From assembly GCA_016180655.1 (NCBI GenBank), contig JACPAT010000030.1, positions 1 to 55,345 on the forward strand: a stretch of 55,345 nt of DNA, given 5' to 3'. Numbering within the stretch: position 1 is the first letter of the stretch; each line of letters starts with the position of its first letter. Of this stretch, positions 2,624 through 54,855 are shown piece after piece. The stretch comes from Candidatus Methylomirabilota bacterium (lineage in GTDB: Bacteria; Methylomirabilota; Methylomirabilia; Methylomirabilales; 2-02-FULL-66-22). A program made the position numbers and the translations under genes. A model generated the notes under the pieces. That model searched no databases. It was not told the origin of the DNA and worked only from the letters and a program-made list of their open reading frames with translations.

Positions 2624-4010
2624 GGTCCCGGTCGCGGATCTGCCGGTCCAGGCCGTATTTCTTCGCCCGATAACGGAAGGAGCGGAAGTTGATCCCCAGC
2701 AGTTGGGCCGCCCTGGTCTGGATCCCCCCGGCCTTCTCCAGCGCATCCTTCATCAGGGCCTTCTCCAGGTCGGCCACGACCTGCTCCAGGTCCAGGCCTT
2801 CAGGCGGAACCTCCCAGCGGGGGCGCGGGGGCACGGGCGCAGGCTGGCAGATGCTGGGTGGGAGGTTCTCCACCTGCACCTCATCGGTCGTGGCCAAGGC
2901 CACGGCGCGTTCGATGGCGTTCTCCAGCTCTCGCACGTTCCCGGGCCAGGAATACGCCATGAGGACCTGCACGGCTTCCGGCGATATCTCCATCGCCGAT
3001 CGCCCGGCCTTGGCCGCGTAGAACCCCAGGAAATTTGTCGCCAGGACCAGGATGTCCTCCCGACGCTCTCGCAGCGGCGGGAGCTCCACGGGGATGACGT
3101 TCAACCGGTAGTAGAGATCTTCTCGGAAGCTCCCCTGCTGGATGAGCTGCGTCAGGTCCTTGTTGGTGGCCGCCATCATGCGGACATCCACCTCCATGTC
3201 CTCGGTGCCCCCCACGCGGCGGAAGATGTGGTCCTGGAGGAAGCGCAAGAGCTTCACCTGCAGCATCGGGCTCATCTCTGCAATCTCGTCCAGGAAGACG
3301 GTGCCGCCCCGGGCCACCTCCAGCAAGCCCGCCTTGTTCGCGGTGGCCCCCGTGAACGAGCCCTTGACGTGGCCGAACAGCTCGCTCTCCAAGAGTTCCT
3401 CCGGGATAGCCCCGCAGTTGATGGCCATGAAGGGCTTCCCGGCCCGAGGCGAGTTGCCATGGATGGTCCGCGCCACCAACTCCTTCCCCGTGCCGCTCTC
3501 GCCCGTGATCATGATCGTCGAATCCACGACCGCCACGCGGCTGATGAGCTTGTAGAGCTCCACCATCTTCGGGCTTTTCCCAATGATCCCTCGAAGGCCT
3601 GCCTCCTCCAGCCGGGGCGGGGCCGTCGGCTCGACTTGCGGGCGCCGCTCGACCCGGGCCAGCGCCCGCTGGATGACGAGCCGGATCTCGTCCACCTTGA
3701 ACGGCTTCGTGATGTAGTCGAAGGCCCCCTGTTTCATCGCCTGGATGGCCGAGTCCGAGGAGGCATAGGCGGTCACCATGATCACCGGCGTGTCCAGGCC
3801 GTGCTCGCGCAACCCGGCCAGGAGCCCCACCCCATCCCGCCGCGGCATCTTGATGTCCGAGATGACCAGATCCAGCTCGCGGCCGGTGGCCAGGGCCAGC
3901 CCGTCCTCGCCGTCCGCGGCCGTGGTGACCTGGTGACCATCCTTCTCCAGCAGGATGCGGAGGAACTCCCGCATGGCCTCCTCATCGTCCACCACGAGGA
4001 TCCGGCTCAC
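2610..4010 (-). CDS. pilR: sigma-54-dependent response regulator PilR (NtrC family)
   Basis: It has a REC domain (RILVVDDEE) and an AAA+ sigma-54 interaction domain (GESGTGKE, GSFTGA, ESELFGH). A C-terminal Fis-type HTH is present (TRAAQLLGINFRSFRYRAKKYGL). The start is set at GTG 4010 (GAGG 6 nt upstream) because the ATG at 4061 lies inside the (CAATGAC)4 repeat. Confidence 0.9.
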   Translation of the reverse strand: MSRILVVDDEEAMREFLRILLEKDGHQVTTAADGEDGLALATGRELDLVISDIKMPRRDGVGLLAGLREHGLDTPVIMVTAYASSDSAIQAMKQGAFDYITKPFKVDEIRLVIQRALARVERRPQVEPTAPPRLEEAGLRGIIGKSPKMVELYKLISRVAVVDSTIMITGESGTGKELVARTIHGNSPRAGKPFMAINCGAIPEELLESELFGHVKGSFTGATANKAGLLEVARGGTVFLDEIAEMSPMLQVKLLRFLQDHIFRRVGGTEDMEVDVRMMAATNKDLTQLIQQGSFREDLYYRLNVIPVELPPLRERREDILVLATNFLGFYAAKAGRSAMEISPEAVQVLMAYSWPGNVRELENAIERAVALATTDEVQVENLPPSICQPAPVPPRPRWEVPPEGLDLEQVVADLEKALMKDALEKAGGIQTRAAQLLGINFRSFRYRAKKYGLDRQIRDRDHADS

Positions 4011-4030: not shown

Positions 4031-4061
4031 CAATGACCAATGACCAATGACCAATGACCAA
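4031..4061. repeat. Perfect heptamer array (CAATGAC)x4 plus CAA in the pilS-pilR spacer
   Basis: The sequence caatgac caatgac caatgac caatgac caa was read directly. It lies about 20 nt upstream of the proposed pilR start. Confidence 0.95.
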
Positions 4062-4158: not shown

Positions 4159-6087
4159 CTACTTCCTGCTCTCCGCGCCGACCGTCACCGGCGCGCGGTG
4201 CAGCCAGATGCGGAAGGTGGTCCCGGTCCCCGGGCGGCTCTCCACCCCGATGCGGCCGTCCATGCTCTCGAGGAGCTTGCGCGCAATGGAGAGCCCCAGG
4301 CCGGTTCCCGAGGGTCGGGTCGTGTAGAACGGGTCGAAGATCCGTTCCAGCTCCTGCGGCGGGATTCCGCGACCCGTGTCGTGGAACACGATCTCCACCC
4401 ACTCACCGCCTGTCGGCGGTGTCGAGTAGTCAAGTGGTCGAGTAGTCAAATGGTCTTCTCGGCTCGAATCACCAGCTCTTCCGAATTGACCAATTGACGA
4501 ATTGACCAATTGGCCATCCCCCTCGGACGGCGATGTCAATTGGTCCATTGGTCGAGTAGTCAACTGGTCACTCTGCTTCGGAGCCTCGCCTTTCCCGAAT
4601 TGACCAATTGACGAGCTGACCGATTGACTCCCGTGCGGCGCAGGCCGCAGGGCAATGGTGAGGGTTCCCCCTTCGGACATGGCCTGCATCGCGTTGAGGC
4701 AGAGGTTCCACACGACCTGCCGGAGCTGATCCAGGTCGGCCAGGACATGCAGGTCCGGCTCCTCTTCCGTCAGGACCCAGGTCATCTCCGGATGGCGCTC
4801 ACTGCTCTTGGCGAGGAGGTGCAGCGTCTCGTCCAGCAGCGGGCGAAGCGGGCACGGGCGGAACAGCAGCGGTTGGGGCTTGGCAAAATCCAGGAACTGG
4901 CCGGTGATCAGCTTCAGGCGACTCGCCTCGCGCAGGATGATGTCCAGGAGCTGCCGCTGCGGTCCCGCGGGGGCAAGATCCTCGCGCAGGACCTCCACCG
5001 ATCCGCTGATCGCCGCCAGGGGATTGCGCACCTCGTGGGCGATGTTGGCCGCAAGCTGTCCCAGGGCGGCCAGGCGGTCTGCGCGGCGGAGGTGCTCTTC
5101 CACCCGCTTGCGCTCCGTGAGGTCCTGGAAGATGGCCACCAGGCCCACCGGCTCTCCCTCGGCCGCCCGCAGGGGAGAGCAGGCGATCCCGAGGGGGATC
5201 GGCCGGCCATCCCGTCGCTGGAGATACAGTTCCGTTGCCGGGGTCGCCAGGGGCGCCTCGGGCTGGGCGAAGAACTCGGCCAGGGCGGGGCAGGCCCCGA
5301 AGGGCGTCTCTTGCCAGGGTCGGTCCCGCAGGGCCTCGAAGTCGTAGCCGGTGATCTGTTCTGCGGCCGCATTGAAGGAGATGACCCGCCCTGCCAGGTC
5401 CAGGGTCAGGATCCCGCTGGGGATGTTGGCGACGATGGCCCAGTGCAGCGTCTGGAGGTTCCGGAGATCCAGTCCCCGCCGCTCCAGCTCCTGCCCGGCC
5501 TGCCTGAGGCGCTCCACCAGGTGGCTGCTGAGGATGGCCACGGCCAGGAAGGCGACCGCGTGGATCAGCACCTGGTAGACCGCGTATCCCGCGGGGCGGA
5601 GGGGGGCGAGGCCGCCCGCGAACTCCGCGGGGGGGAGGAGCCGCGTCCATTCCGCCGCCACCAGGATGCCGTACAGCCCGCCGCTGAGGATCGCCACCAG
5701 GAGGCTCCCCCGGCGCTCCAGCACGTTGGCGGCCCCGAAGATGACGAAGATGTACATGAAGGGGAAGGCAGAATCCAGGCCGCCGGTGAAGTGGACCAGC
5801 AGGCTCACCAGCCCCAGGTCCAAGCCCAATTGCACCAGCCCCTGGAACAGGAGATGCCGCTGGCTGCGGAGGGCCAGGGCGTAGACTAGGGAGAGGCCGA
5901 AGGTCAGGCCCAGCAGACCGTACAGCGGGGGGGTGGGAAAGGGCAGGCGCTCGTGCAGGTCCAGGGCGAAGGCCGAGCCCAGGAGGGCCGAGGCCAGGAG
6001 CAGCCGGATGCCCGTGAGCCACTTCAGCTTCTGGAGCATCCCGGGCGTCGCCCCGGCCGGGCGACGCGGCGCTTTCTCCCCGGGCAC
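4159..6087 (-). CDS. pilS: Sensor histidine kinase PilS, carrying a repeat-encoded insert in the ATPase domain
   Basis: It has an N-terminal multi-TM domain, a PAS region and an H-box (IAHEVRNPL). HATPase_c motifs are N box NLCLNAMQAM, G1 DTGRGI, F FDPFYTT and G2 GTGLGLS. The start is set at GTG 6087 with GGAGG 5 nt upstream. A ~75-aa insert lies between the N box and G1 (nt 4421-4628). Confidence 0.9.
   Translation of the reverse strand: MPGEKAPRRPAGATPGMLQKLKWLTGIRLLLASALLGSAFALDLHERLPFPTPPLYGLLGLTFGLSLVYALALRSQRHLLFQGLVQLGLDLGLVSLLVHFTGGLDSAFPFMYIFVIFGAANVLERRGSLLVAILSGGLYGILVAAEWTRLLPPAEFAGGLAPLRPAGYAVYQVLIHAVAFLAVAILSSHLVERLRQAGQELERRGLDLRNLQTLHWAIVANIPSGILTLDLAGRVISFNAAAEQITGYDFEALRDRPWQETPFGACPALAEFFAQPEAPLATPATELYLQRRDGRPIPLGIACSPLRAAEGEPVGLVAIFQDLTERKRVEEHLRRADRLAALGQLAANIAHEVRNPLAAISGSVEVLREDLAPAGPQRQLLDIILREASRLKLITGQFLDFAKPQPLLFRPCPLRPLLDETLHLLAKSSERHPEMTWVLTEEEPDLHVLADLDQLRQVVWNLCLNAMQAMSEGGTLTIALRPAPHGSQSVSSSIGQFGKGEAPKQSDQLTTRPMDQLTSPSEGDGQLVNSSIGQFGRAGDSSREDHLTTRPLDYSTPPTGGEWVEIVFHDTGRGIPPQELERIFDPFYTTRPSGTGLGLSIARKLLESMDGRIGVESRPGTGTTFRIWLHRAPVTVGAESRK
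4421..4513. repeat. Periodic-arm palindrome, GTCnnnnn family, copy 1 inside pilS
   Basis: The left arm is gtcgagta gtcaagtg gtcgagta gtcaaatg gtc. A 27-nt centre follows. The right arm is gaattgac caattgac gaattgac caattgg. Confidence 0.9.
4536..4628. repeat. Periodic-arm palindrome, GTCnnnnn family, copy 2 inside pilS
   Basis: The left arm is tcaattg gtccattg gtcgagta gtcaactg gtcac. A 25-nt centre follows. The right arm is gaattgac caattgac gagctgac cgattgac. Confidence 0.9.
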
Positions 6088-6109
6088 CGTCACCTCCAGA
6101 AAGGAAAAT

Positions 6110-19638: not shown

Positions 19639-19756
19639 CCGCAAATGAACGCAAATGGACGCGAATGTCAAAGGGCCAAACCTCCGGAGAAAAACTTCGG
19701 GATGCGACCTACACTCATTGGCGTTCATTTGCGTGTATTTGCGGTTGCATTGGCGG
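19639..19756. repeat. Periodic-arm palindrome, ATGAACGC ~10-mer family, filling a permease-permease spacer
   Basis: The left arm is cgcaaatgaa cgcaaatgga cgcgaatg. The centre contains hairpin CCGGAG-aaaaa-CTTCGG. The right arm is cattggcgttcatttgcgtgtatttgcggttgcattggcg. It is homologous to the element at 37733-37880. Confidence 0.85.
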
Positions 19757-20422: not shown

Positions 20423-20493
20423 GGCAACTTGGCAAGTTGGCAACTGGGCAATCAGGCTGTTCTTCCCGGCTGCCTAATCGCCCAATTGCCGAG
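20423..20493. repeat. Periodic-arm palindrome, TGGCAA family
   Basis: The left arm is ggcaact tggcaag ttggcaac tgggcaatc. A GC-rich centre follows, then the right arm aatcgcccaattgccgag. An imperfect GC-rich hairpin follows at about 20498-20537. Confidence 0.8.
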
Positions 20494-21257: not shown

Positions 21258-21344
21258 TGATTGTCGATTTGCGATTGTCGATTGACGATTGGCCGGAACC
21301 CCGGCAAGAATCGGAAATCGTAAATCGGCAATCGTCAATTCAAG
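21258..21344. repeat. Periodic-arm palindrome, CGATTnn / nnAATCG family
   Basis: The left arm is tgattg tcgattt gcgattg tcgattg acgattgg. The centre is CCGGaaccCCGG. The right arm is caagaatcg gaaatcg taaatcg gcaatcg tcaattc. The right arm contains the stop codon of the upstream permease. Confidence 0.9.
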
Positions 21345-23768: not shown

Positions 23769-23854
23769 CATTTTCGATTGACGATTGTCGATTGACGATT
23801 GGGCAGGACGTTCCGAGACAATCGGCAATCGCAAATCGAAAATCGCCAATCAGG
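23769..23854. repeat. Periodic-arm palindrome, CGATTnn / nnAATCG family
   Basis: The left arm is cattttcgattgacgattgtcgattgacgattggg and the right arm is caatcggcaatcgcaaatcgaaaatcgccaatcagg. It fills the whole ATPase-SBP spacer. Confidence 0.9.
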
Positions 23855-25589: not shown

Positions 25590-25829
25590 ATGGAGGTCCT
25601 GAAAGCAGATCTGGTTCTCGACTGCAAGGGCGTGCTGTGCCCGATGCCTGTCATTCGAGTCTCGCAGGCGATCAAAACGATCGGCGTGGGCCAGATCCTG
25701 GAAGTGCAGACGACCGATCCGGGATCCCGCCCGGACATGGAGGCCTGGAGCAAGCAGACGGGCCACGAACTGCTGGCCAGCCAGGAAGGAAACCGTGTTT
25801 TCACCTTCTACGTGCGCCGAACCAAATGA
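25590..25829 (+). CDS. tusA: TusA/SirA-family sulfurtransferase
   Basis: This 79-aa protein carries the LDCKGVLCPMPV CPxP active-site motif. GGAGGGAGG lies upstream. Confidence 0.9.
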   Translation: MEVLKADLVLDCKGVLCPMPVIRVSQAIKTIGVGQILEVQTTDPGSRPDMEAWSKQTGHELLASQEGNRVFTFYVRRTK

Positions 25830-25876
25830 CCAATGCCAATGAACCAATTGGTCATTGAGAATGGTCATTGGTCATT
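25824..25876. repeat. Periodic-arm palindrome, CAATGAC / GTCATTG family
   Basis: aaatgac caatgcc aatgaac caatt|aattg gtcattg agaatg gtcattg gtcatt is centred on ccaattgg. The tusA TGA stop lies inside the left arm. Confidence 0.9.
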
Positions 25877-29986: not shown

Positions 29987-30222
29987 CAGACTCCTACAAG
30001 GGGGCACCCGGCGAGGGATGGCAGACGAGCCCGACCCTCGCGGGTGCCCGCCCCCCGCTAACCCTCTCTCGCGAACCACACGCTTCCGTCTCCCATTGCC
30101 AGCTGTCGTAGGGGGCACCGGTTTCCCCGGGGATTCCTGACGGCTGCGTGAACGGGAGCGCGAGCGACACCGCATCAACCTCCTGCGCTTTCTTGCCGGA
30201 TCAAGTCGGGCTTCCAGGCCTG

Positions 30223-30251
30223 TTGCAATTCACTGCCCCATCGGCTATCAT
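30223..30251 (+). promoter_or_regulatory. sigma-70 promoter candidate for the radical-SAM/rng operon
   Basis: The sequence reads TTGCAA-N17-TATCAT. AAGGAG lies at 30262-30267 and the ATG at 30274. Confidence 0.45.
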
Positions 30252-30273
30252 GCCAACCGAAAAGGAGCGCTTT

Positions 30274-32988
30274 ATGCCAGCGGTCCTGGCGTCGTATAAA
30301 TCCGCAATCGCCGAATACATCCTGCCGTCCGTGACCAGGCCCTCCCGGTACATCGCGGGGGAATGGAACTCGGTGGGCAAGGACCCTGAGACGGCCGAGG
30401 TCCGGGTGGCCCTGGCGTTCCCCGATGCCTACGAGATCGGGATGTCGCACATGGGCCTCAAGATTCTGTACCAGATCCTGAACGCTCGCCCGGAGATCCT
30501 GGCGGAGCGAGCCTACGCCCCCTGGCTGGACGCCGAGGCGCTCTTCCGCCGCCACGGCATTCCCTTGTGCAGTCACGAATCGAGCCTCCCCCTGGGAAGC
30601 TTCGATATCCTGGGGTTCACCCTCCAGTACGAGTTGTCCTTCGCCACAATCCTCAACATGCTGGAGCTGGCGGGCATCCCCCTCTGCGCCTCCGACAGGG
30701 ACATCCGGCACCCGCTGGTGGTGGCCGGGGGGCCGGTCGCCTTCGCGCCGGAGCCGTTGGCGGACTTCATGGACGCCTTCCTCATCGGGGACGGCGAGGA
30801 GGCGACGCTGGAGCTGTGCGGGGTCGTCCGCGAATGGAAACGCGAGGGCGGGTCCCGCGAGGAACTGCTCCGCGCGGTGAAGGGGATTGCCGGGATGTAC
30901 GTCCCCGCCCTGCACCAGCCGGGCGAGGTCGTGCGGAAGCGGACCGCGCTGAAACTGGACGTCGTGGACTACGGCCAGTTCCCCGTCCCCTACATGGAGA
31001 TCGTCCACGACCGCGCCAACATCGAGGTGATGCGGGGCTGCGCGCAGGGCTGCCGCTTCTGCCAGGCCGGCTACATCTACCGGCCGATCCGCGAGCATTC
31101 CGCCCCGAGGATCCGGACCCTGGTGGACCAGGCGCTCCGGGGGACGGGGTATGAAGAAGTGTCGCTCTCTTCTCTCTCGATCGCCGACCTGTCGTGTCTC
31201 CGGGACCTGGTGCCGCCGCTCATGGCCAGCCTGATCCCGGACAAGACCTCCCTGAGTCTCCCGTCGCTGCGGGTCGAGGCCCTGAACCGCAACCCGGAGA
31301 TCGCCGCGGAGATCGGGAAGGTGAGAAAGACCGGGTTCACCATCGCGCCCGAGGCCGGCTCGGCCCGGTTGCGGAGGGTGATCAACAAGGAAGGATTCGA
31401 CGAGGAGCAGATCTTCACCGCGGTCCGGAACGCGGCCGGGGCCGGCTGGGAGTCGGTGAAGTTCTACTTCATGATCGGGCTCCCGACGGAGGAGCAGGCC
31501 GACCTGGACGAGCTGGTCCGCGTGGCCAAAGAGTCGGCGCGCATCGCCCGCCGGGAGAGTCCCCGAGGGTTCGGCCTGACGGTCAGCGTCGGCTCCTTCG
31601 TGCCCAAGCCGCATACCCCGTTCCAGTGGTTCGCGCAGGACCCGATGCCCATCCTCAAGGAGAAGCAGTCCTACCTGCGGGGGCGGCTGCGCGAGGCGCG
31701 GATCGATTTCAAGTGGCACCACGTCGAGTCGTCCTTCCTGGAAGCCGTGTTTACCCTGGGTGGCCGGGAGGTGGGTGCCGCCATCGCCCTGGGCCAGCAG
31801 CGTGGGTGCCGCTTTGACGGCTGGACGGAACAGCTCAAGTTCGACACCTGGATGGAGGCGCTGGAGGACGCAGGCGTCGATCCCTCCGCCATCGCCAACC
31901 GGCCGCGCGGCCTGGACGAGCCGCTGCCCTGGGACCACATCGACTGCGGGGTCTCCAGGCAGTTCCTGAAGCGGGAGCACAAGAAGGCGCTGCAGGTCAA
32001 GGGGACCCCGGACTGCCACGTGGGTCCCTGCAGCAACTGCGGCGAGGTCTGCGTCCCCAACTGGCGGACCTGGGCGCAGGAAGTCGGCATGATCGAAGTA
32101 GAGCCGCGAGCCGCGAGCCGCGAGCCGGGAGCCGAGAGCCACGAACCGGACACGGCGAGGCCCGAGGCACGACAGGCCATTGGTCAAGTGGTCAATCAGT
32201 CAATAAGTCTTGACGAATCGACCAATGGACCAGTTGACCACTCGACTCGGCGGAGCCGGGTACCCCCTGGGGGGGTGCCGGCCCGGCAGCCGGCCCAGAA
32301 GATCCGATTCGAATTCCAGAAGGTGGGCGAGCTCCGCTACCTCTCCCACCTGGAACTGATGCGGGCACTGCAGCGCGCCTTACGGCGCGCCGGCGTGCCG
32401 CTGGCCTACACGCAGGGCTTCAATCCCCAGCCGAAGGTCTCGGTGGCCCAGGCGCTGGCCGTGGGCGTGGAGGGCCTGCAGGAACTGGGGGAAGTGGAGC
32501 TCACCTCGCGGGTAGACCCGGCGGACCTGCTGGCGGGCTGGAACAGGCATCTGCCGCCCGAACTCAAGATTCTCCGGGCCTGGGAAGCCCCCCTGAACGA
32601 GCCGTCGCTTTCCACCGGGGTACGAGGTGCGTCGTATCAGATTCGGTTGCAGCCGAACGGCTGGGATTCCACCACCCTGGCCGCCCTCGGCACCGCCGGG
32701 GCCTGCGCCGACTTCCTGGCGCAGGGCCCCATCCCCGTCGAGGTATCCAAGAAAGGACAGACGGTGACCCTCGACGCGCGCCCCTTTGTCCAAGGATTCA
32801 CCGCCACGTCGGAGGGCGAGTCCCCCCAGTGGGAACTCACCCTCCGGGCCGGTCTGGGGGGCAGCGTCAAGCCCCAGGCGGTCATGCGGAGTTTCCTCGG
32901 ACGTTGGGTCCCCCCCGGCGAGCTGGATCGGATGATCTCGTCCCTGCGGATCACGCGGACGGCTCTCGCCCTCGAGGGCCAGGGGTAG
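30274..32988 (+). CDS. B12-binding-domain radical SAM protein fused to a DUF2344-type radical-SAM-linked domain
   Basis: The start is ATG 30274 (AAGGAG 6 nt upstream). A CX3CX2C motif is present (CAQGCRFCQAG). The C-terminal domain (RFEFQKVGELRYLSHLELMRALQRALRRAGVPLAYTQGFNP) is typical of the protein usually encoded next to rne/rng. The linker contains repeat-encoded sequence (32101-32246). Confidence 0.88.
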   Translation: MPAVLASYKSAIAEYILPSVTRPSRYIAGEWNSVGKDPETAEVRVALAFPDAYEIGMSHMGLKILYQILNARPEILAERAYAPWLDAEALFRRHGIPLCSHESSLPLGSFDILGFTLQYELSFATILNMLELAGIPLCASDRDIRHPLVVAGGPVAFAPEPLADFMDAFLIGDGEEATLELCGVVREWKREGGSREELLRAVKGIAGMYVPALHQPGEVVRKRTALKLDVVDYGQFPVPYMEIVHDRANIEVMRGCAQGCRFCQAGYIYRPIREHSAPRIRTLVDQALRGTGYEEVSLSSLSIADLSCLRDLVPPLMASLIPDKTSLSLPSLRVEALNRNPEIAAEIGKVRKTGFTIAPEAGSARLRRVINKEGFDEEQIFTAVRNAAGAGWESVKFYFMIGLPTEEQADLDELVRVAKESARIARRESPRGFGLTVSVGSFVPKPHTPFQWFAQDPMPILKEKQSYLRGRLREARIDFKWHHVESSFLEAVFTLGGREVGAAIALGQQRGCRFDGWTEQLKFDTWMEALEDAGVDPSAIANRPRGLDEPLPWDHIDCGVSRQFLKREHKKALQVKGTPDCHVGPCSNCGEVCVPNWRTWAQEVGMIEVEPRAASREPGAESHEPDTARPEARQAIGQVVNQSISLDESTNGPVDHSTRRSRVPPGGVPARQPAQKIRFEFQKVGELRYLSHLELMRALQRALRRAGVPLAYTQGFNPQPKVSVAQALAVGVEGLQELGEVELTSRVDPADLLAGWNRHLPPELKILRAWEAPLNEPSLSTGVRGASYQIRLQPNGWDSTTLAALGTAGACADFLAQGPIPVEVSKKGQTVTLDARPFVQGFTATSEGESPQWELTLRAGLGGSVKPQAVMRSFLGRWVPPGELDRMISSLRITRTALALEGQG
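32101..32149. repeat. GC-rich heptamer array (GAGCCGC-like)x7 inside the radical-SAM linker
   Basis: The seven units are gagccgc gagccgc gagccgc gagccgg gagccga gagccac gaaccgg. The array translates as EPRAASREPGAESHEP. Confidence 0.95.
32177..32246. repeat. Periodic-arm palindrome, GTCnnnnn family, in frame inside the radical-SAM fusion
   Basis: ccattggtc aagtggtc aatcagtc aataagtc | ttgacgaa tcgaccaa tggaccag ttgaccac tcgac translates as AIGQVVNQSISLDESTNGPVDHST. Confidence 0.9.
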
Positions 32989-34612: not shown

Positions 34613-34694
34613 GTCGACTAGTCAATTGGTCGAGTGGGCGAATAGTGGGGAGCCTCCGGGACCAATTGACGAGTTGACCATTTGACTATTCGAC
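34613..34694. repeat. Periodic-arm palindrome, GTCnnnnn family
   Basis: The left arm is gtcgacta gtcaattg gtcgagtg ggcgaata gtgg. The centre is GGAGcCTCC. The right arm is gaccaatt gacgagtt gaccattt gactattc gac. Confidence 0.9.
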
Positions 34695-34716
34695 ATCCAG
34701 GAGGGGCCGGAAAAGC

Positions 34717-35495: not shown

Positions 35496-37732
<2,237 letters not shown>

Positions 37733-37759
<27 letters not shown>

Positions 37760-37880
37760 ACGCAGATACGGATGGACCCGCAGGTGAACGCCAATGAACG
37801 CGAATTCTCAAGGACCGAAACTCCGCACTCCCATCGTCTGTGCCCAATGATCAGCGTTCATCTGCGTGTATCTGCGGTTC
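37733..37880. repeat. Periodic-arm palindrome, ATGAACGC ~10-mer family, spanning the proB-proA junction
   Basis: The left arm is cagatgaacg cagataaacg cagatacgg ... caggtgaacg ccaatgaacg cgaattc. The centre is tcaaggaccgaaactccgcac.. and the right arm is caatgatcagcgttcatctgcgtgtatctgcggttcc. The core is homologous to 19639-19756. Confidence 0.85.
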
Positions 37881-39887: not shown

Positions 39888-40004
39888 GCAATCTGGCAAC
39901 TGGGCAATTTGGCAATCGGGAAGTCGGGTAACCTGGCAACTGGGCAATCGGGCAACCCCGCCATCGGCGGGGCAACCCGGAACTCCTGATTGCCGGATTG
40001 CCGG
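39887..40004. repeat. Periodic-arm palindrome, TGGCAA family (longest array)
   Basis: The left arm is ggcaatc tggcaac tgggcaat ttggcaatc gggaagtc gggtaacc tggcaac tgggcaatc gggcaacc. The centre is CCGCCatcGGCGG. The right arm is ggcaacccggaactcctgattgccggattgccgg. It starts at the nadD stop. Confidence 0.9.
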
Positions 40005-40699: not shown

Positions 40700-41065
40700 A
40701 TGCCGCTCAAGGGACCCAAGCTGGAGAAATTCAAGCAGCGCCTGCTGGCCAAGCGCAAAGAATTGATCAGCGAGGTCCGGGGGTCCAACGTCGGCAGCCT
40801 GGAGACCAGCACCGATGGGATCCAGGACATCGCCGATCAGGCCAGCAGCGCCTACACCAAGGAGTTCCTGCTCTCCATCGGGGATGCGGAACGCCGCATG
40901 CTCCGGCAGGTGGACGAGGCGCTGACCAAGATCCGCCAGGACACCTACGGCCGGTGCGAGTCGTGCGGCGAGATGATCAGCGAACGCCGCCTGGAAGCAT
41001 TGCCCTTCGCCAGGCTCTGCATCGCATGCCAGGAAGAGGAGGAGCGGGCGAAGGCCAGGAGCTGA
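40700..41065 (+). CDS. DksA/TraR-family C4 zinc-finger protein
   Basis: The start is ATG 40700 (MPLKGPKLEKF). It has a coiled-coil region followed by CESCGEMISERRLEALPFARLCIACQ. Confidence 0.88.
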   Translation: MPLKGPKLEKFKQRLLAKRKELISEVRGSNVGSLETSTDGIQDIADQASSAYTKEFLLSIGDAERRMLRQVDEALTKIRQDTYGRCESCGEMISERRLEALPFARLCIACQEEEERAKARS

Positions 41066-41216
41066 CCTCGCACGCCCCCCGCGTCGGGCCGCCCGATCCG
41101 CGGTGGCGGGTCCGGACCACCGGCGCGTTGGCTCTCGGGGATGCCGCGTGCACGGATCGAATGGCCGGCAGGCCCTTCCCCTCGGACCCAGGGATCGCGT
41201 CCGATCCCGTGCCTGC

Positions 41217-43844
41217 ATGTCGTCACCTTCCTCTCCGCATTCCCGAACATCCGGGGTTGTCCTCGACGCGATGACCCGCCTTCCGCTGGTTCCCGACATT
41301 CCGCACTCGTCTTCCCGTGAGCGTGGCACGGCAATCGTCCCCTGGCTCTGGCTCCAGGTGGGGACGCTGGTCGTCGCCCGCCGGGCGTGGGCCCAGGCGG
41401 AGGGCGCAGGACGCTCCCTCCTCGACGAACTGTGGCAACGACTGGCCGAGATCCAGCTGGTGGCCAACAATCCCGTGGTGCTGCAGTACGGGGCCTATGC
41501 GGTCGGGGGGATCGTGGTGCTGTGGGTCCTCTCGCGCCTGCCCCGGCTGCTGCGGCGGACGGGGGGAGGGGCGGTGGCAGCCCCCTCCCGGTCCCAGAAT
41601 CTCCGGGAGGCGCGGCGGGCTGCCCGTCGGGGCGATCCCGTGCAGGCGGGACGGTTCTTCGAGGCGGCCGAGGACTGGGAGAGCGCGGCCGAGTCATACG
41701 AGCGCGGGCGGGCCCTGGCGGATGCGGCCGGCGCCTGGGAGCGGCTGAACCAGACCGCCAAGGCGGCGCGACTGTACGAGCAGGCGAACGAGCCGTCCAA
41801 GGCGGCCGACCTGTTCCTCCGGCTCGGGAATCCTGCCCGGGCGGCCGGCCTGCTCCAGAAAGCCGGGCAGGAGGTCAAGGCCGCCGAGGCCTACGAGCGG
41901 GCCGGGGACCTGGAGCGGGCCGCGGGGCTGTACGCCAAGCACGAGGTCTTCGACCGGGCCGGGGAGCTCCTGGCCAGGCTGGGCCAGCAGGCGTCGGCGG
42001 CCGAGCTTTTCGAGCGCGCCCTGCGCCGGCTGGTCGTGCGCCAGGGGGTCGAGCTGTCCGCGGAGGCCACCCAGGCCCGGCAGGCCCTGGCGCGGCGCTG
42101 CGCCGAGCTCTACGTCCGAGGCCAACAGCCGGCCAAGGCGGCGGCGGTCCTGCGCGAGCACGGGTTGGAGCTGGACGCGGCGGAGTATTTCTGCCAGGCG
42201 GGCGACTGGGAGACCGGGCTGGACATCTTCCTCCGCCATCGGCAGTTCGATCGCGCCGCCGCGGCCTGTCAGGCCCAGGGGGCGGAGGACCGGCTTCACC
42301 TCGTGCAGGGGGAGCGCTTGGCGGCCGACGGGCGCGAGCGGGACGCCGCCCGCGAGTTCGAGGCCGGGCAGGCGTGGTGGCGGGCCGCGGAGATGTACGA
42401 GCGGGCCCGGGACTACGCCAAGGCGGCCCAGATGTACGGGCGCCACGGGGATGACGAGCGGGCCGCCGAGATGCACGCGGCCGCGGGAGAGCCCGCCCAG
42501 GCCGCGGCCGCGCTGGACCGGTTGGGGAAGCCGAAGGAGGCGGCCCGTTACTACCAGGAGGCGGGGGCGATCGAACAGGCGGCCAGGGCCCTGCAGGCGG
42601 CCGGCGACTTCTTCGGGGCGGGGTGCCTCTGGATGCAGGCCCAGGCCCCGGACGAGGCGGTGGCCCTCCTCCAGCAGGTGAGCCCGGAGTCCGAGCGGTA
42701 CCTGGAGGCCACGATCGCACTGGGGGACCTGTTCCTGGAGCGGCAGCTCTATGGCCCGGCCCGGGAGAAGTTCGAGAGGGCGGCCGCCCTGCGCGCCATC
42801 GCGCCGGACTTCATCCATCCCACCTACCAGCTCGCCGTGATCCACGAGCGGCAGGGAGACTTGCCGAAGGCCCTGGCCCTCTACGAGAAGGTGATGGCCG
42901 AGCAGCTCGGCTACCGGGACGTCCAGGCCCGGGTGGCCGATCTGCGGGAGCGCCTGGCCCAGGCGACCCCGGTCCTGCCCGGCGGAGAGGCGACGCAGGT
43001 CGTGGCCCCGCCCGCGCGCACGCGCTACCGCCTCATCCGGGAACTGGGCCGGGGGGGCATGGGGATCGTGTACCACGCGGAGGATGTGCTCCTGCAGCGC
43101 CCCGTGGCCTACAAGGTGCTGCCCGACGCCATCCGCGAGGATCCCAAGGCCCTGGAGTACTTCCTGCGCGAGGCGCGCATCGCCGCCTCCCTCCAGCATC
43201 CCAACATCGTCACGATCTACGACGCCGGGCAGGCGGCCGACGAGATCTACATCGCCATGGAGTACGTCGAGGGCCGCTCGCTCCAGGAGATCCTGGACCA
43301 GGTCCCGACCCTGCCCCTGCCGCAGGCCCTGGCGCTCTTCCGCCAGGCCTGTGTGGGCCTGGCCCACGCCCACGGGCAGAATGTCGTCCACCGCGACATC
43401 AAGCCGGCCAACATGATGATCACCCCGGGCGGCGTGGTGAAGCTCATGGACTTCGGCTTGGCGGCGGTGGTCACCGAGGCCATGGCCAAGGTGACCTCGG
43501 TGCGGGGTACTCCCTTCTACATGGCACCGGAGCAGATCCTGGGCGAGGAAATCTCGGCCCTGACGGATCAGTACGCCCTGGGCTGCACGCTCTACCACAT
43601 GGTGACGGGCCGGCCTCCCTTCGTCGAGGGGGACGTCCTGTACCATCACATCCACACGGCTCCCGTGTCCCCGCGCGAGCGGAATCCGCGGATCCCGGCC
43701 TGGCTGGACGCCATCCTGCTGCGGACCATGCTGAAGGATCGCACCCGACGCTTCCCCTCCGTGGGCGTCCTGCTCCAGGAGGTGGACCGCTGCCTGGCGG
43801 GGGCCCGCGGGAACGGGCCGCTGTCCGGGACGGTCACCCCCTGA
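41217..43844 (+). CDS. Ser/Thr protein kinase with N-terminal TM segment and long Ala-rich TPR-like repeat region
   Basis: The C-terminal Hanks kinase domain has GRGGMGIVY, VAYK, HRDIKPANM, DFG and GTPFYMAPE. Upstream are repeats of the type AAEAYERAGDLERAAGLYAK. The start is uncertain, with candidates from 41103 to 41271. Confidence 0.85.
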   Translation: MSSPSSPHSRTSGVVLDAMTRLPLVPDIPHSSSRERGTAIVPWLWLQVGTLVVARRAWAQAEGAGRSLLDELWQRLAEIQLVANNPVVLQYGAYAVGGIVVLWVLSRLPRLLRRTGGGAVAAPSRSQNLREARRAARRGDPVQAGRFFEAAEDWESAAESYERGRALADAAGAWERLNQTAKAARLYEQANEPSKAADLFLRLGNPARAAGLLQKAGQEVKAAEAYERAGDLERAAGLYAKHEVFDRAGELLARLGQQASAAELFERALRRLVVRQGVELSAEATQARQALARRCAELYVRGQQPAKAAAVLREHGLELDAAEYFCQAGDWETGLDIFLRHRQFDRAAAACQAQGAEDRLHLVQGERLAADGRERDAAREFEAGQAWWRAAEMYERARDYAKAAQMYGRHGDDERAAEMHAAAGEPAQAAAALDRLGKPKEAARYYQEAGAIEQAARALQAAGDFFGAGCLWMQAQAPDEAVALLQQVSPESERYLEATIALGDLFLERQLYGPAREKFERAAALRAIAPDFIHPTYQLAVIHERQGDLPKALALYEKVMAEQLGYRDVQARVADLRERLAQATPVLPGGEATQVVAPPARTRYRLIRELGRGGMGIVYHAEDVLLQRPVAYKVLPDAIREDPKALEYFLREARIAASLQHPNIVTIYDAGQAADEIYIAMEYVEGRSLQEILDQVPTLPLPQALALFRQACVGLAHAHGQNVVHRDIKPANMMITPGGVVKLMDFGLAAVVTEAMAKVTSVRGTPFYMAPEQILGEEISALTDQYALGCTLYHMVTGRPPFVEGDVLYHHIHTAPVSPRERNPRIPAWLDAILLRTMLKDRTRRFPSVGVLLQEVDRCLAGARGNGPLSGTVTP

Positions 43845-47303: not shown

Positions 47304-47306
47304 TCT

Positions 47307-47391
47307 GTCGAATGGTCGAGTGGTCAATACGTCAATTCGTCGTTACAGTCCGCAGGGACGAATGGACTGATTGACGATTTGACCAATTGAC
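47307..47391. repeat. Periodic-arm palindrome, GTCnnnnn family
   Basis: The left arm is gtcgaatg gtcgagtg gtcaatac gtcaattc gtcgttac agtc. The centre is cgcaggg. The right arm is acgaatg gactgatt gacgattt gaccaatt gac. It fills the pgk-tpiA spacer up to the tpiA RBS. Confidence 0.9.
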
Positions 47392-47402
47392 TGGGAGGAG
47401 CG

Positions 47403-52254: not shown

Positions 52255-52361
52255 TTGTCCGATTTGCGATTTGGGATTGTGGATTTTCGATTTCCGGACG
52301 GGACCCCGCGGTTTCCACGGGCAGTCGGCAATCGGCGATCGTCAATCGAAAATCGACAATC
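52255..52361. repeat. Periodic-arm palindrome, CGATTnn / nnAATCG family, between convergent genes
   Basis: The left arm is ttgtccgatttgcgatttgggattgtggattttcgatttccgg and a GC-rich centre follows. The right arm is agtcggcaatcggcgatcgtcaatcgaaaatcgacaatc. Confidence 0.9.
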
Positions 52362-53811: not shown

Positions 53812-54855
53812 ATGGCGGCCGCCCGGATTGACCCACACTGGCGCTACCACGACCTGCGGGCCATCCTGCTGGAGAATGCCCGCCTGCGCCTCACCATCCT
53901 GCCCGAGGTCGGGGCGAAGATCTCCGATTTCATCTGCAAGCGCTCCGACCGGAACCTGCTGTGGCAGAACCCCCGGCTGGCGCCTCGCCTGCCCGCCTTC
54001 GGCGGCAATTTCGACGACTGGTGGAGCGGGGGCTGGGACGAGGTCTTCCCCACCTGCGACATCAGCACCTACCAGGGTGAAACCTACCCCTACCTGGGGG
54101 AACTCTGGTCGCTTCCCTGGGCCTGGGAGGTCGAGGAGGCCGGCCCGTCCGCCGTCAGGCTGTATCTCACGCGGACGACGATTATCGCAACGGCACGGAT
54201 GGAGAAGTGGATTCGCCTGGAAGCGGACGAACCGGTCGTCCGCTTCCGGCACCGGCTGACCAACCTCGGGACCCGGCCCATGGATTTCGTGTGGGGGATC
54301 CACCCCTGCTTTCGCATCGAGGCGGGCTACCGGATTGACGCTCCGGCCCGGGTCGGGGTCATCGGCCACACGGCGACAGCCCCCTTCGGACCGGTGGGGA
54401 CGACGTACCCGTGGCCGAACCCCGACATCTGCACCGTTCCGCGGACGACCCAGGGCTGGTGCGAGGGGCACTACGCGACCGAAATGACCGACGGGTGGGT
54501 CGCCCTGACGGACCCGAAGGCCGAGGTGGGGATCGGCCTCGTCTTTCCGCGTGACGTGTTCCCGGTCCTGTGGTGCTGGATGGTCTATGGCGGGTGGCGC
54601 GGCCACTACCATGCGGCGCTGGAGCCCTGGACGGGCTGGCCGCACCAACTGGACAAGGCGGTAGCGGCGGGACGACACCGGACCCTGGCGCCGGGTGAAT
54701 CGCTCGAGTGCGAGACCATGGCGGTTGTTTATAGCGGGGTGCATGCGAGACCATGGCGGTTGTTTATAGCGGGGTGCAATCTGTCACCTCGATCGGGTGG
54801 GACGGCCATGTTCGTGGGTGACGGTGAAACCGCAAATGCACGCAATGTACCTTGA
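53812..54855 (+). CDS. Aldose-1-epimerase (galactose mutarotase)-like fold protein, with the 3' end frameshifted by a 35-bp tandem duplication
   Basis: The start is ATG 53812 (GGAGGAG upstream). The function is a low-confidence guess from overall beta-rich sequence character and the adjacent sugar-type ABC ATPase. Without the duplicated copy the frame ends ..MAVVYSGVQSVTSIGWDGHVRG* at 54819-54821. Confidence 0.6.
   Translation: MAAARIDPHWRYHDLRAILLENARLRLTILPEVGAKISDFICKRSDRNLLWQNPRLAPRLPAFGGNFDDWWSGGWDEVFPTCDISTYQGETYPYLGELWSLPWAWEVEEAGPSAVRLYLTRTTIIATARMEKWIRLEADEPVVRFRHRLTNLGTRPMDFVWGIHPCFRIEAGYRIDAPARVGVIGHTATAPFGPVGTTYPWPNPDICTVPRTTQGWCEGHYATEMTDGWVALTDPKAEVGIGLVFPRDVFPVLWCWMVYGGWRGHYHAALEPWTGWPHQLDKAVAAGRHRTLAPGESLECETMAVVYSGVHARPWRLFIAGCNLSPRSGGTAMFVGDGETANARNVP
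54709..54778 (+). repeat. Perfect 35-bp direct tandem duplication
   Basis: tgcgagaccatggcggttgtttatagcggggtgca occurs at 54709-54743 and again at 54744-54778. The two copies are identical. Confidence 0.97.

Follow-up and report, generated by a model that had tools for sequence, protein, structure and literature searches.

The window analyzed here, a stretch of 55,345 nt (contig JACPAT010000030.1, which encodes protein MBI2113899.1) from a member of candidate division NC10/Methylomirabilota, carries a pilS-type sensor histidine kinase gene in which repeat DNA is embedded in frame. The repeat is palindromic, its arms consist of tandem 8-nt units, and further members of the same family were found in the window, both between genes and within a second, unrelated gene. 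In pilS, it lies in the part encoding the ATP-binding domain, between the N box and the G1 box, where it is translated into ~80 additional residues without interrupting the open reading frame (ORF). The reading favored here, with a probability of about 0.6, is that a selfish or neutral palindromic repeat has been tolerated in a surface turn of the kinase, where it yields a disordered loop on translation while recombining and homogenizing under the constraint of the reading frame.

A periodic palindrome translated within PilS

The minus-strand ORF at 4159..6093 encodes 644 aa without interruption, and the H, N, G1, F, and G2 boxes of the kinase are all intact. By motif reading, the H box was located at 5017-5037 and, within HATPase_c, the N box (NLCLNAMQAM) at 4678..4707 and the G1 box (DTGRGI) at 4363..4380, all on the minus strand. 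The product was considered a PilS because it combines 6TM_PilS, PAS, HisKA, and a (split) HATPase_c domain, because its gene adjoins those for the sigma-54 regulator PilR and for pilBTC, and because its orthologs are annotated as PilS by JGI. The gene order pilT-pilC-pilS-pilR-Wzy_C is the same in all orthologous contigs examined. The start of pilR is probably a GTG near 4005.

Alignment with orthologs, an AlphaFold2 model, and comparison with the kinase ZraS delimited the insert to 4405..4644 (minus strand; aa 484-563). An earlier note on this DNA, made from its letters alone, had described two tandem repeat copies translated in frame as a segment of ~75 aa; its translation and coordinates were correct to within a few bases, and the length has to be corrected to ~80 aa. 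Both copies are present as a 110-nt direct repeat (4403-4512 and 4517-4626; 73% identical, at a spacing of 114 nt). The insert comprises two modules, both on the minus strand. Module 1 (4516..4632; aa 488-526, GSQSVSSSIGQFGKGEAPKQSDQLTTRPMDQLTSPSEGD) is the one common to the closest single-module alleles; module 2 (4405..4515; aa 527-563, GQLVNSSIGQFGRAGDSSREDHLTTRPLDYSTPPTGG) is a 37-codon segment missing from them. In gene sense, about four GTCAATTG-like units make up the first arm of each module (~37-39 codons, ~111-117 nt); a loop of ~27 nt follows, and the second arm has about four units similar to CAATTGAC.

The four arms (all minus strand) were resolved by repeat search and Tandem Repeats Finder (TRF). 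The upstream arm of module 1 (4597..4628) has four 8-nt units of the (GTCAAnnG) type in the sense strand, its downstream arm (4535..4569) four of the (nAnTnGAC) type. In module 2, the upstream arm (4483..4512) contains the sole perfect direct repeat of the insert (16 nt × 1.9; TRF 4482-4512, period 16, 100% matches), and the downstream arm (4421..4455) alternates between GACTACTC and GACCAnTT units (TRF, period 16, 2.2 copies). Arrays of period 8/16 were returned at 4421-4455, 4482-4516, 4535-4570, and 4598-4628, and many inverted pairs were found among the four arms. Over 4405-4644, the autocorrelation at lag 8 was 0.48 (z = 8.2 versus shuffles; z = 5.9 at lag 16). The GC content of the insert is 0.51-0.55, compared with ~0.65-0.75 in its surroundings.

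The pilS modules are open in only one of the six frames, and the probability that 80 codons stay open by chance at the composition of the insert is 0.03. A perfect (CAATTGAC)n arm leads to TGA in every frame; the coding copies have CGA or GGA there, as exemplified by the downstream arm of module 1 with its CGA codon, and on direct reading this replacement of TGA gives rise to the recurrent peptide ...TN(R/G)P.... Other peptides encoded by the insert include SSIGQFGK and LTTRPLDYSTPPTGGEWVEIVFHDTGR.

The position of the insert in the kinase fold was clear from several comparisons. The Pfam HATPase_c match falls into two stretches, the second of which covers aa 563-633 (profile positions 35-109). 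In the structure of ZraS (9jfj), the closest solved kinase, chain residues 161 and 163 flank the insert site, and ~78 residues of PilS replace what is a turn of one residue in ZraS; the claim that the repeat is translated within the ATPase domain was thereby borne out. Outgroup or distant PilS and other WNLCLNA-type kinases have 2-20 residues at this site. In the AlphaFold2 model, which was built with 93 orthologs, the predicted local distance difference test score (pLDDT) exceeded 90 for the strands at aa 476-484 and 565-572 and was below 50 for aa 493-561. A surface loop is consistent with this result: the insert is predicted to form a disordered excursion from the β-hairpin turn of the catalytic domain.

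Ancestry and turnover of the modules

Nearly all of 120 PilS orthologs (58-99% identity) have 26-45 extra residues, corresponding to one module, at the insert site (for example, SQLVNSSIGQLGRTE..GDQLTNRPIDQST). In a neighbor-joining tree rooted with distant PilS, the basal lineages have an Ala/Pro/Gly-rich segment there, often of exactly 38 aa; a short segment of 7-15 residues in an otherwise intact kinase was observed for P0106, P0088, P0119, and P0120. Judged from this distribution, one module is ancestral to nearly the whole Methylomirabilota PilS clade, and the insertion is older than the radiation of the clade; since then, part of the lineages have seen the module decay, and a few have a shortened version. 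A concern of the earlier note, that close orthologs might carry the same ~75-aa segment as a conserved domain without any DNA periodicity, did not materialize: orthologs sharing the segment carry one module of ~38 aa rather than the pair, and lineages with a recognizable insert peptide also keep the 8-nt periodicity in their DNA. The outgroups stem from a contig scan with back-translated PilS motifs (IAHE[VI]RNPL, WNLCLNAxQ), which was too generic and, among the matches listed, returned only distant PilS-like kinases of 25-45% identity. When the 79-aa insert was searched against 1.84 billion representatives, zero matches resulted, which, for a short query of low complexity, is uninformative with respect to other carriers.

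The insert differs from the remainder of the gene in both its divergence and its codon usage. Amino acid identity was 0.36-0.67 in the insert versus 0.75-0.93 in the rest of PilS, and the GC content at third codon positions (GC3) was 0.51-0.65 in the insert versus 0.79-0.93 elsewhere in the gene (~0.87 for the genome). In decayed lineages, GC3 of the insert was as high as 0.71-0.77. Glutamine is encoded by CAA in 26 of 35 cases within the insert versus 19 of 150 elsewhere, and leucine of the insert mostly by TTG. The frequency of the same codon given the same amino acid was considered as a further test and abandoned (0.61 in the insert, 0.60 in the rest), as it is uninformative on its own: a strong GC3 bias raises codon sharing outside the insert, and the signal that informs is which codons are shared. 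Perfectly homogenized arms were found in other lineages: (GGGCAATT)x4 in L003 and L213, (CGCTCGAC)x4 in L084, and (CACTCGAC)x4 in module 3 of L213. This homogenization disregards complementarity with the partner arm, and hairpin stability can be lost in its course (z = +1.3 for L084).

Close alleles (at least 90% identity) carry one, two, or three modules, and all length changes seen among them are in frame. The 90%-identity cluster to which the window belongs contains two-module alleles (from five separate assemblies) and single-module alleles; another contains alleles with one, two, and three modules. Compared with that of L212 (93% identical across the gene), pilS of the window is longer by exactly 37 codons, and the junctions coincide with a short direct repeat, ACAYCGCCG. 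A recombinant, P0143, belongs to the cluster with up to three modules; its left arm stems from module 1 and its loop from module 2, and the right arm is shorter by 8 aa. Several lineages lack exactly 8 aa of one arm, which is 24 nt or three units. The aberrant arm of L206 was considered as a compensated frameshift and rejected, as it looks like a replacement by unrelated GC-rich sequence.

The tandem copies had been presented by the earlier note as an insertion of repeat DNA, and as far as a recent event is meant, this does not hold. Modules 1 and 2 share only 71% DNA identity, compared with 92% between module 1 and its ortholog in L212 and 75% between module 2 and the L085 module; modules 1 and 2 thus differ as much as modules from different lineages do, and a recent tandem duplication was therefore ruled out. 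Either the two-module allele is old and was later lost in relatives, or it would have arisen by unequal recombination between diverged alleles.

Dispersed copies and a proposed origin of the insert

When the window was searched for the 16-mer GAATTGACCAATTGAC, allowing up to three mismatches, 16 matches were found at five loci, compared with 0.08 expected. One family copy (32172..32250, plus strand; motif search and translation) is again in frame and encodes AIGQVVNQSISLDESTNGPVDHST within the linker of the fusion protein radical-SAM/DUF2344 (ORF 30148..32988). This protein has 946 aa, with Radical_SAM_N2 and Radical_SAM followed by DUF2344, and the repeat lies in the interdomain linker. Many of its orthologs (78-93% identity) have the same translated element; deeper lineages have a plain linker of 48-58 aa. 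Two other copies, at 34613..34695 and 47306..47392, are intergenic, contain stop codons in all six frames, and form hairpins of z = −3.95 and −5.75, respectively (motif search and folding); their arm units match those of the pilS modules. Coding copies are open in one of six frames and intergenic copies in none.

Directly upstream of the palindrome in the radical-SAM gene, at 32101-32148, a heptamer array, (GAGCCGC)x6.9, is translated as well (EPRAASREPGAESHEP). Linker length among the orthologs ranges from 48 to 150 aa, and EPRAESREP-like peptides recur. At the protein level, the PilS insert of P0051/P0052/P0034 reads GQSGTPATGQPGA...PECQ, which corresponds, residue by residue, to AT-to-GC changes of GQLVNSSIGQLG; the radical-SAM linker of P0210/P0194/P0231/P0208 contains similar SGTQ...PEC peptides, apparently in the same genome as the PilS counterpart. 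The copies embedded in pilS and in the radical-SAM gene may, to judge by these peptides, decay together in a lineage.

From these data, the following course of events is proposed. A hairpin-forming dispersed repeat would have inserted in an ancestor shared by the Methylomirabilota PilS clade, its site being the codons of the β-hairpin turn located between N box and G1 box. Because this turn is solvent-exposed and the copy was open in one frame, the insertion would have been tolerated and translated, resulting in a disordered loop of ~38 residues and an intact kinase, with little or no consequence for kinase function. The arms would subsequently have been homogenized by slippage, unequal exchange, or gene conversion, and the direct repeats would drive gain and loss of whole modules (one, two, three) and of three-unit (24-nt) blocks, while purifying selection on PilS would remove all frame-breaking variants. 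The second module of the window would be old, or gained by unequal recombination with a diverged allele.

Several points weigh against this interpretation. AT-rich codons and a length of ~38 aa have been kept over deep divergence, which is more than simple neutrality predicts and could reflect selection acting on either the nucleic acid or the loop; the segment, which should be easy to delete, has persisted in most lineages. The alleles considered are ORF-called or assembled only, and out-of-frame variants are possibly under-sampled. On direct reading, no direct repeat that could represent a target-site duplication flanks the copies at 32172-32250, 34613-34695, and 47306-47392, whose inverted arms are present, and the pilS site is too old to be informative in this respect; no transposase was identified in the 55-kb window or the flanks of the orthologs, a genome-wide search for one not having been run.

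If the hairpin or the 8-mer array were itself selected as RNA or DNA, for instance because it stabilizes the pilS-pilR mRNA, makes translation pause, or offers an array of protein-binding sites, the peptide would be a by-product. Such a cis-acting role could explain why rare AT-ending codons and low GC3 are kept across lineages whose insert peptides are 36-67% identical. It is also in line with the stable RNA folds of the whole insert (z = −4.8 in the window, −7.1 in L003, −4.6 in L085) and with the identical paired-array architecture in Geobacter metallireducens, for which a function as IHF/HU sites was proposed (PMC2700814). We consider it unlikely nevertheless, as hairpin potential has been lost despite periodic arms in L084, L086 (z = −0.4), and L087 (z = −1.1), the perfect arms of module 3 in L213 are non-complementary, single coding modules (z = −1.6 to −2.8) fold worse than intergenic copies (z = −4 to −5.8), and no family reached the gathering score when the 55-kb window was scanned with Rfam. 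A wider version of this idea, equally improbable at present, is that periodic-arm palindromes are a genome-wide system maintained at the DNA level, by frequent ectopic gene conversion or a trans-acting factor recognizing 8-mer arrays, which would have long kept the copies within ORFs alive, with unit and module turnover in pilS resulting in heritable tuning or ON/OFF switching of the piliation kinase. Such maintenance would explain the AT-rich repeat codons in crown lineages, the apparent joint decay of the pilS and radical-SAM copies, and the perfectly homogenized arms in an ORF.

The earlier note had gone further in one respect and proposed that changes by 8-nt units act as a mutational switch, i.e., that pilS is a contingency locus in which slippage by one or two units shifts the frame and turns pilin regulation ON or OFF heritably. 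Steps of 8 and 16 nt are indeed not multiples of three, the gene controls a surface organelle, and arms with four identical units in an ORF are most simply explained by repeated loss and gain of single units via frameshifted intermediates, although gene conversion from intergenic copies could also homogenize them. Moreover, the heptamer array (CAATGAC)x4.4 between the pilS stop and the pilR start (4031..4061; TRF) has exactly one unit more than in L212, the genome with 93% identity across pilS, in which the same spacer also differs by a large indel; the one-unit difference indicates that unit slippage occurs in these genomes. However, the longest perfect tract in pilS of the window is 16 nt × 1.9 (perfect four-unit arms occur in other lineages only), the tracts are otherwise imperfect, and the site falls within the 3′-terminal third of pilS. 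Known contingency loci have tracts far longer than 2 × 16 nt. No OFF allele was observed, and the changes seen are in-frame modules or blocks of three units (24 nt). An ORF-independent scan of metagenome contigs with an N-box DNA pattern yielded mostly another WNLCLNA kinase family and a small, assembly-based sample of PilS-type alleles, too few for a real frameshift test, of which 13/13 were in frame and 0/13 frameshifted; all length variants among ~180 proteins were in frame as well. The switch, in the form proposed, thus found no support and is regarded as rather doubtful.

To a similarly small degree, the loop might be a selected protein feature, a functional disordered linker or docking segment of ~38 aa typical of the PilS clade, with the DNA periodicity as a historical trace. 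The retention of the segment in nearly all of the 120 orthologs, often with exactly 38 aa despite Ala/Pro/Gly-rich decay, would fit this notion. So would the recurrence of the motifs IGQLG and LTNRPIDQST, but these are the exact translation of the 8-nt repeat; the amino acid identity of the insert is about half that of the remaining protein, copy number varies from one to three among close strains, the four proteins with 7-15 residues at the site are otherwise intact kinases, and the loop is predicted to be disordered. A chimera, or a repeat collapsed or expanded during metagenome assembly, is conceivable in principle, given that the window is a contig of a metagenome-assembled genome and repeats of ~110 nt can be misassembled from short reads. 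This doubt, already voiced in the earlier note, can be put aside almost completely: the identical two-module allele was found in five separately deposited NC10 proteins (P0001, P0121, P0122, P0123, which is that of the window, and P0129), encoded on contigs of 2.6, 5.5, 13.8, 26.5, and 55.3 kb, modules that are 29% diverged are not collapsible or expandable copies, and the ORF and all motifs are intact. The tolerated palindromic repeat therefore remains the preferred explanation.

To our knowledge, colonization of genes in frame by palindromic repeats is a textbook phenomenon only for Rickettsia. Rickettsia palindromic elements (RPEs; Ogata et al, 2000 Science, 2002 Genome Res), as summarized in PMC10969869 and PMC3733652, are described as multicopy, in frame, and fold-compatible. 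As a functional analogy this precedent, invoked from the outset, is a fair one, the more so with a second in-frame copy in the same window. In both cases, a dispersed palindromic family has intergenic copies and in-frame copies in unrelated, apparently functional genes, which persist across species, and the encoded peptide is at a fold-compatible site (in PilS, a surface loop predicted to be disordered). The element in the window shares the properties of an RPE-like class, being multicopy, palindromic and hairpin-forming, and in frame at a fold-compatible site in more than one unrelated intact gene (pilS and radical-SAM/DUF2344). It differs in its host, Methylomirabilota/NC10, in the size of the module (~111-117 nt versus ~150 bp for an RPE), in a copy number of one to three at one site with arms homogenized in situ, and in the tandem 8-nt units of its arms, a structure not described for RPEs. 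It is not a member of the RPE family proper, as judged from the different phylum and the missing Rfam match, a distinction made without direct comparison to the consensus sequences of RPE-1 to RPE-10.

The closest described architecture is that of the paired arrays in Geobacter metallireducens (classes 1-3; Aklujkar et al, 2009; PMC2700814), where four tandem octanucleotides or five heptanucleotides on one strand are separated, by a spacer that varies, from the same array on the other strand. Such paired sites are present in multiple copies, mostly between genes, and a related family of 4 × heptanucleotides also occurs within genes; IHF/HU or global-regulator sites and targets of insertion sequences were proposed, without experiments, as their function (PMC2700814). 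The units (GTTGCTYN, MTYCTGA) differ from the GTCAATTG-type units in pilS, and neither an in-frame coding role nor module polymorphism was described there. [quoted passage not shown] REPs measure 20-40 bp, carry a GTAG or CGTC head, and are frequently tied to REP-associated tyrosine transposases (RAYTs), whereas the PilS element has ~90-115 nt and periodic arms; MITEs have terminal inverted repeats plus target-site duplications, the latter not seen on direct reading around the copies of the PilS family. A literature search revealed no relevant description of such repeats in Methylomirabilis/NC10.

New features are the arms with their 8-nt periodicity, an ancient origin after which decay or maintenance depended on the lineage, and a polymorphism of one to three modules within the catalytic domain of a kinase. 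An RPE-like phenomenon is thereby extended, with a structurally different element, to an uncultured phylum of soil and groundwater and to the ATP-binding domain of a signaling kinase. Its history can be traced from insertion via decay in some lineages and DNA-level maintenance in others to the polymorphism from one to three modules, and the alleles constitute a natural series for two questions, namely what amount of disordered sequence can be accommodated by a Bergerat-fold kinase at this β-hairpin and how repeat DNA creates new protein segments. Annotators and structure modelers should expect variable, low-complexity, repeat-derived inserts in Methylomirabilota proteins.

Further periodic-arm hairpins and repeats

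Beside the family described above, about a dozen further hairpins in the window have arms of tandem 7-, 8-, or 10-nt units with locus-specific sequences, and almost all are intergenic. They include those at 19640-19743, 21259-21339, 23770-23851, 25825-25876, 35497-35573, 37743-37805, 39895-40004, and 52260-52361 (TRF and folding); a single array at 20423-20451 (TRF) is related to this class. The units, such as CGATTGA, GATTGTC, AAATCCG, CGCAAATGAA, and GGCAACTG, differ at each locus. In the predicted stems, helices of 5-6 bp alternate periodically with small internal loops, and z ranged from −2.5 to −4.6. These hairpins occupy most short intergenic spacers of the window and represent a dense, hitherto undescribed class of this genome.

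Similar structures were approximately ten-fold less dense in outgroup loci from Acidobacteriota, Thermoanaerobaculia, and Geobacteraceae, the densities being lower bounds because the TRF-based census misses degenerate elements. Hairpins with heptamer or octamer arms were observed in contigs of these three groups and of other outgroups, at L006 (9834-9915), L020 (1615-1689 and 11358-11500), L041 (13060-13153), L017 (15-125), L052 (1035-1155), and L013 (19620-19686); one of them is located immediately upstream of an acidobacterial pilS. The occurrence of the same architecture in outgroup contigs indicates that periodic arms are widespread, at lower density. Two other repeats of the window are of a different kind. 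A 39-nt period (42380-42477; 2.5 copies, 66% match) within a large ORF (40977..43844) probably encodes a repeated protein motif, and a perfect 35-nt tandem duplication (TGCGAGACCATGGCGGTTGTTTATAGCGGGGTGCA x2.0, 100% match) is present at 54709-54778, near the right end of the window.

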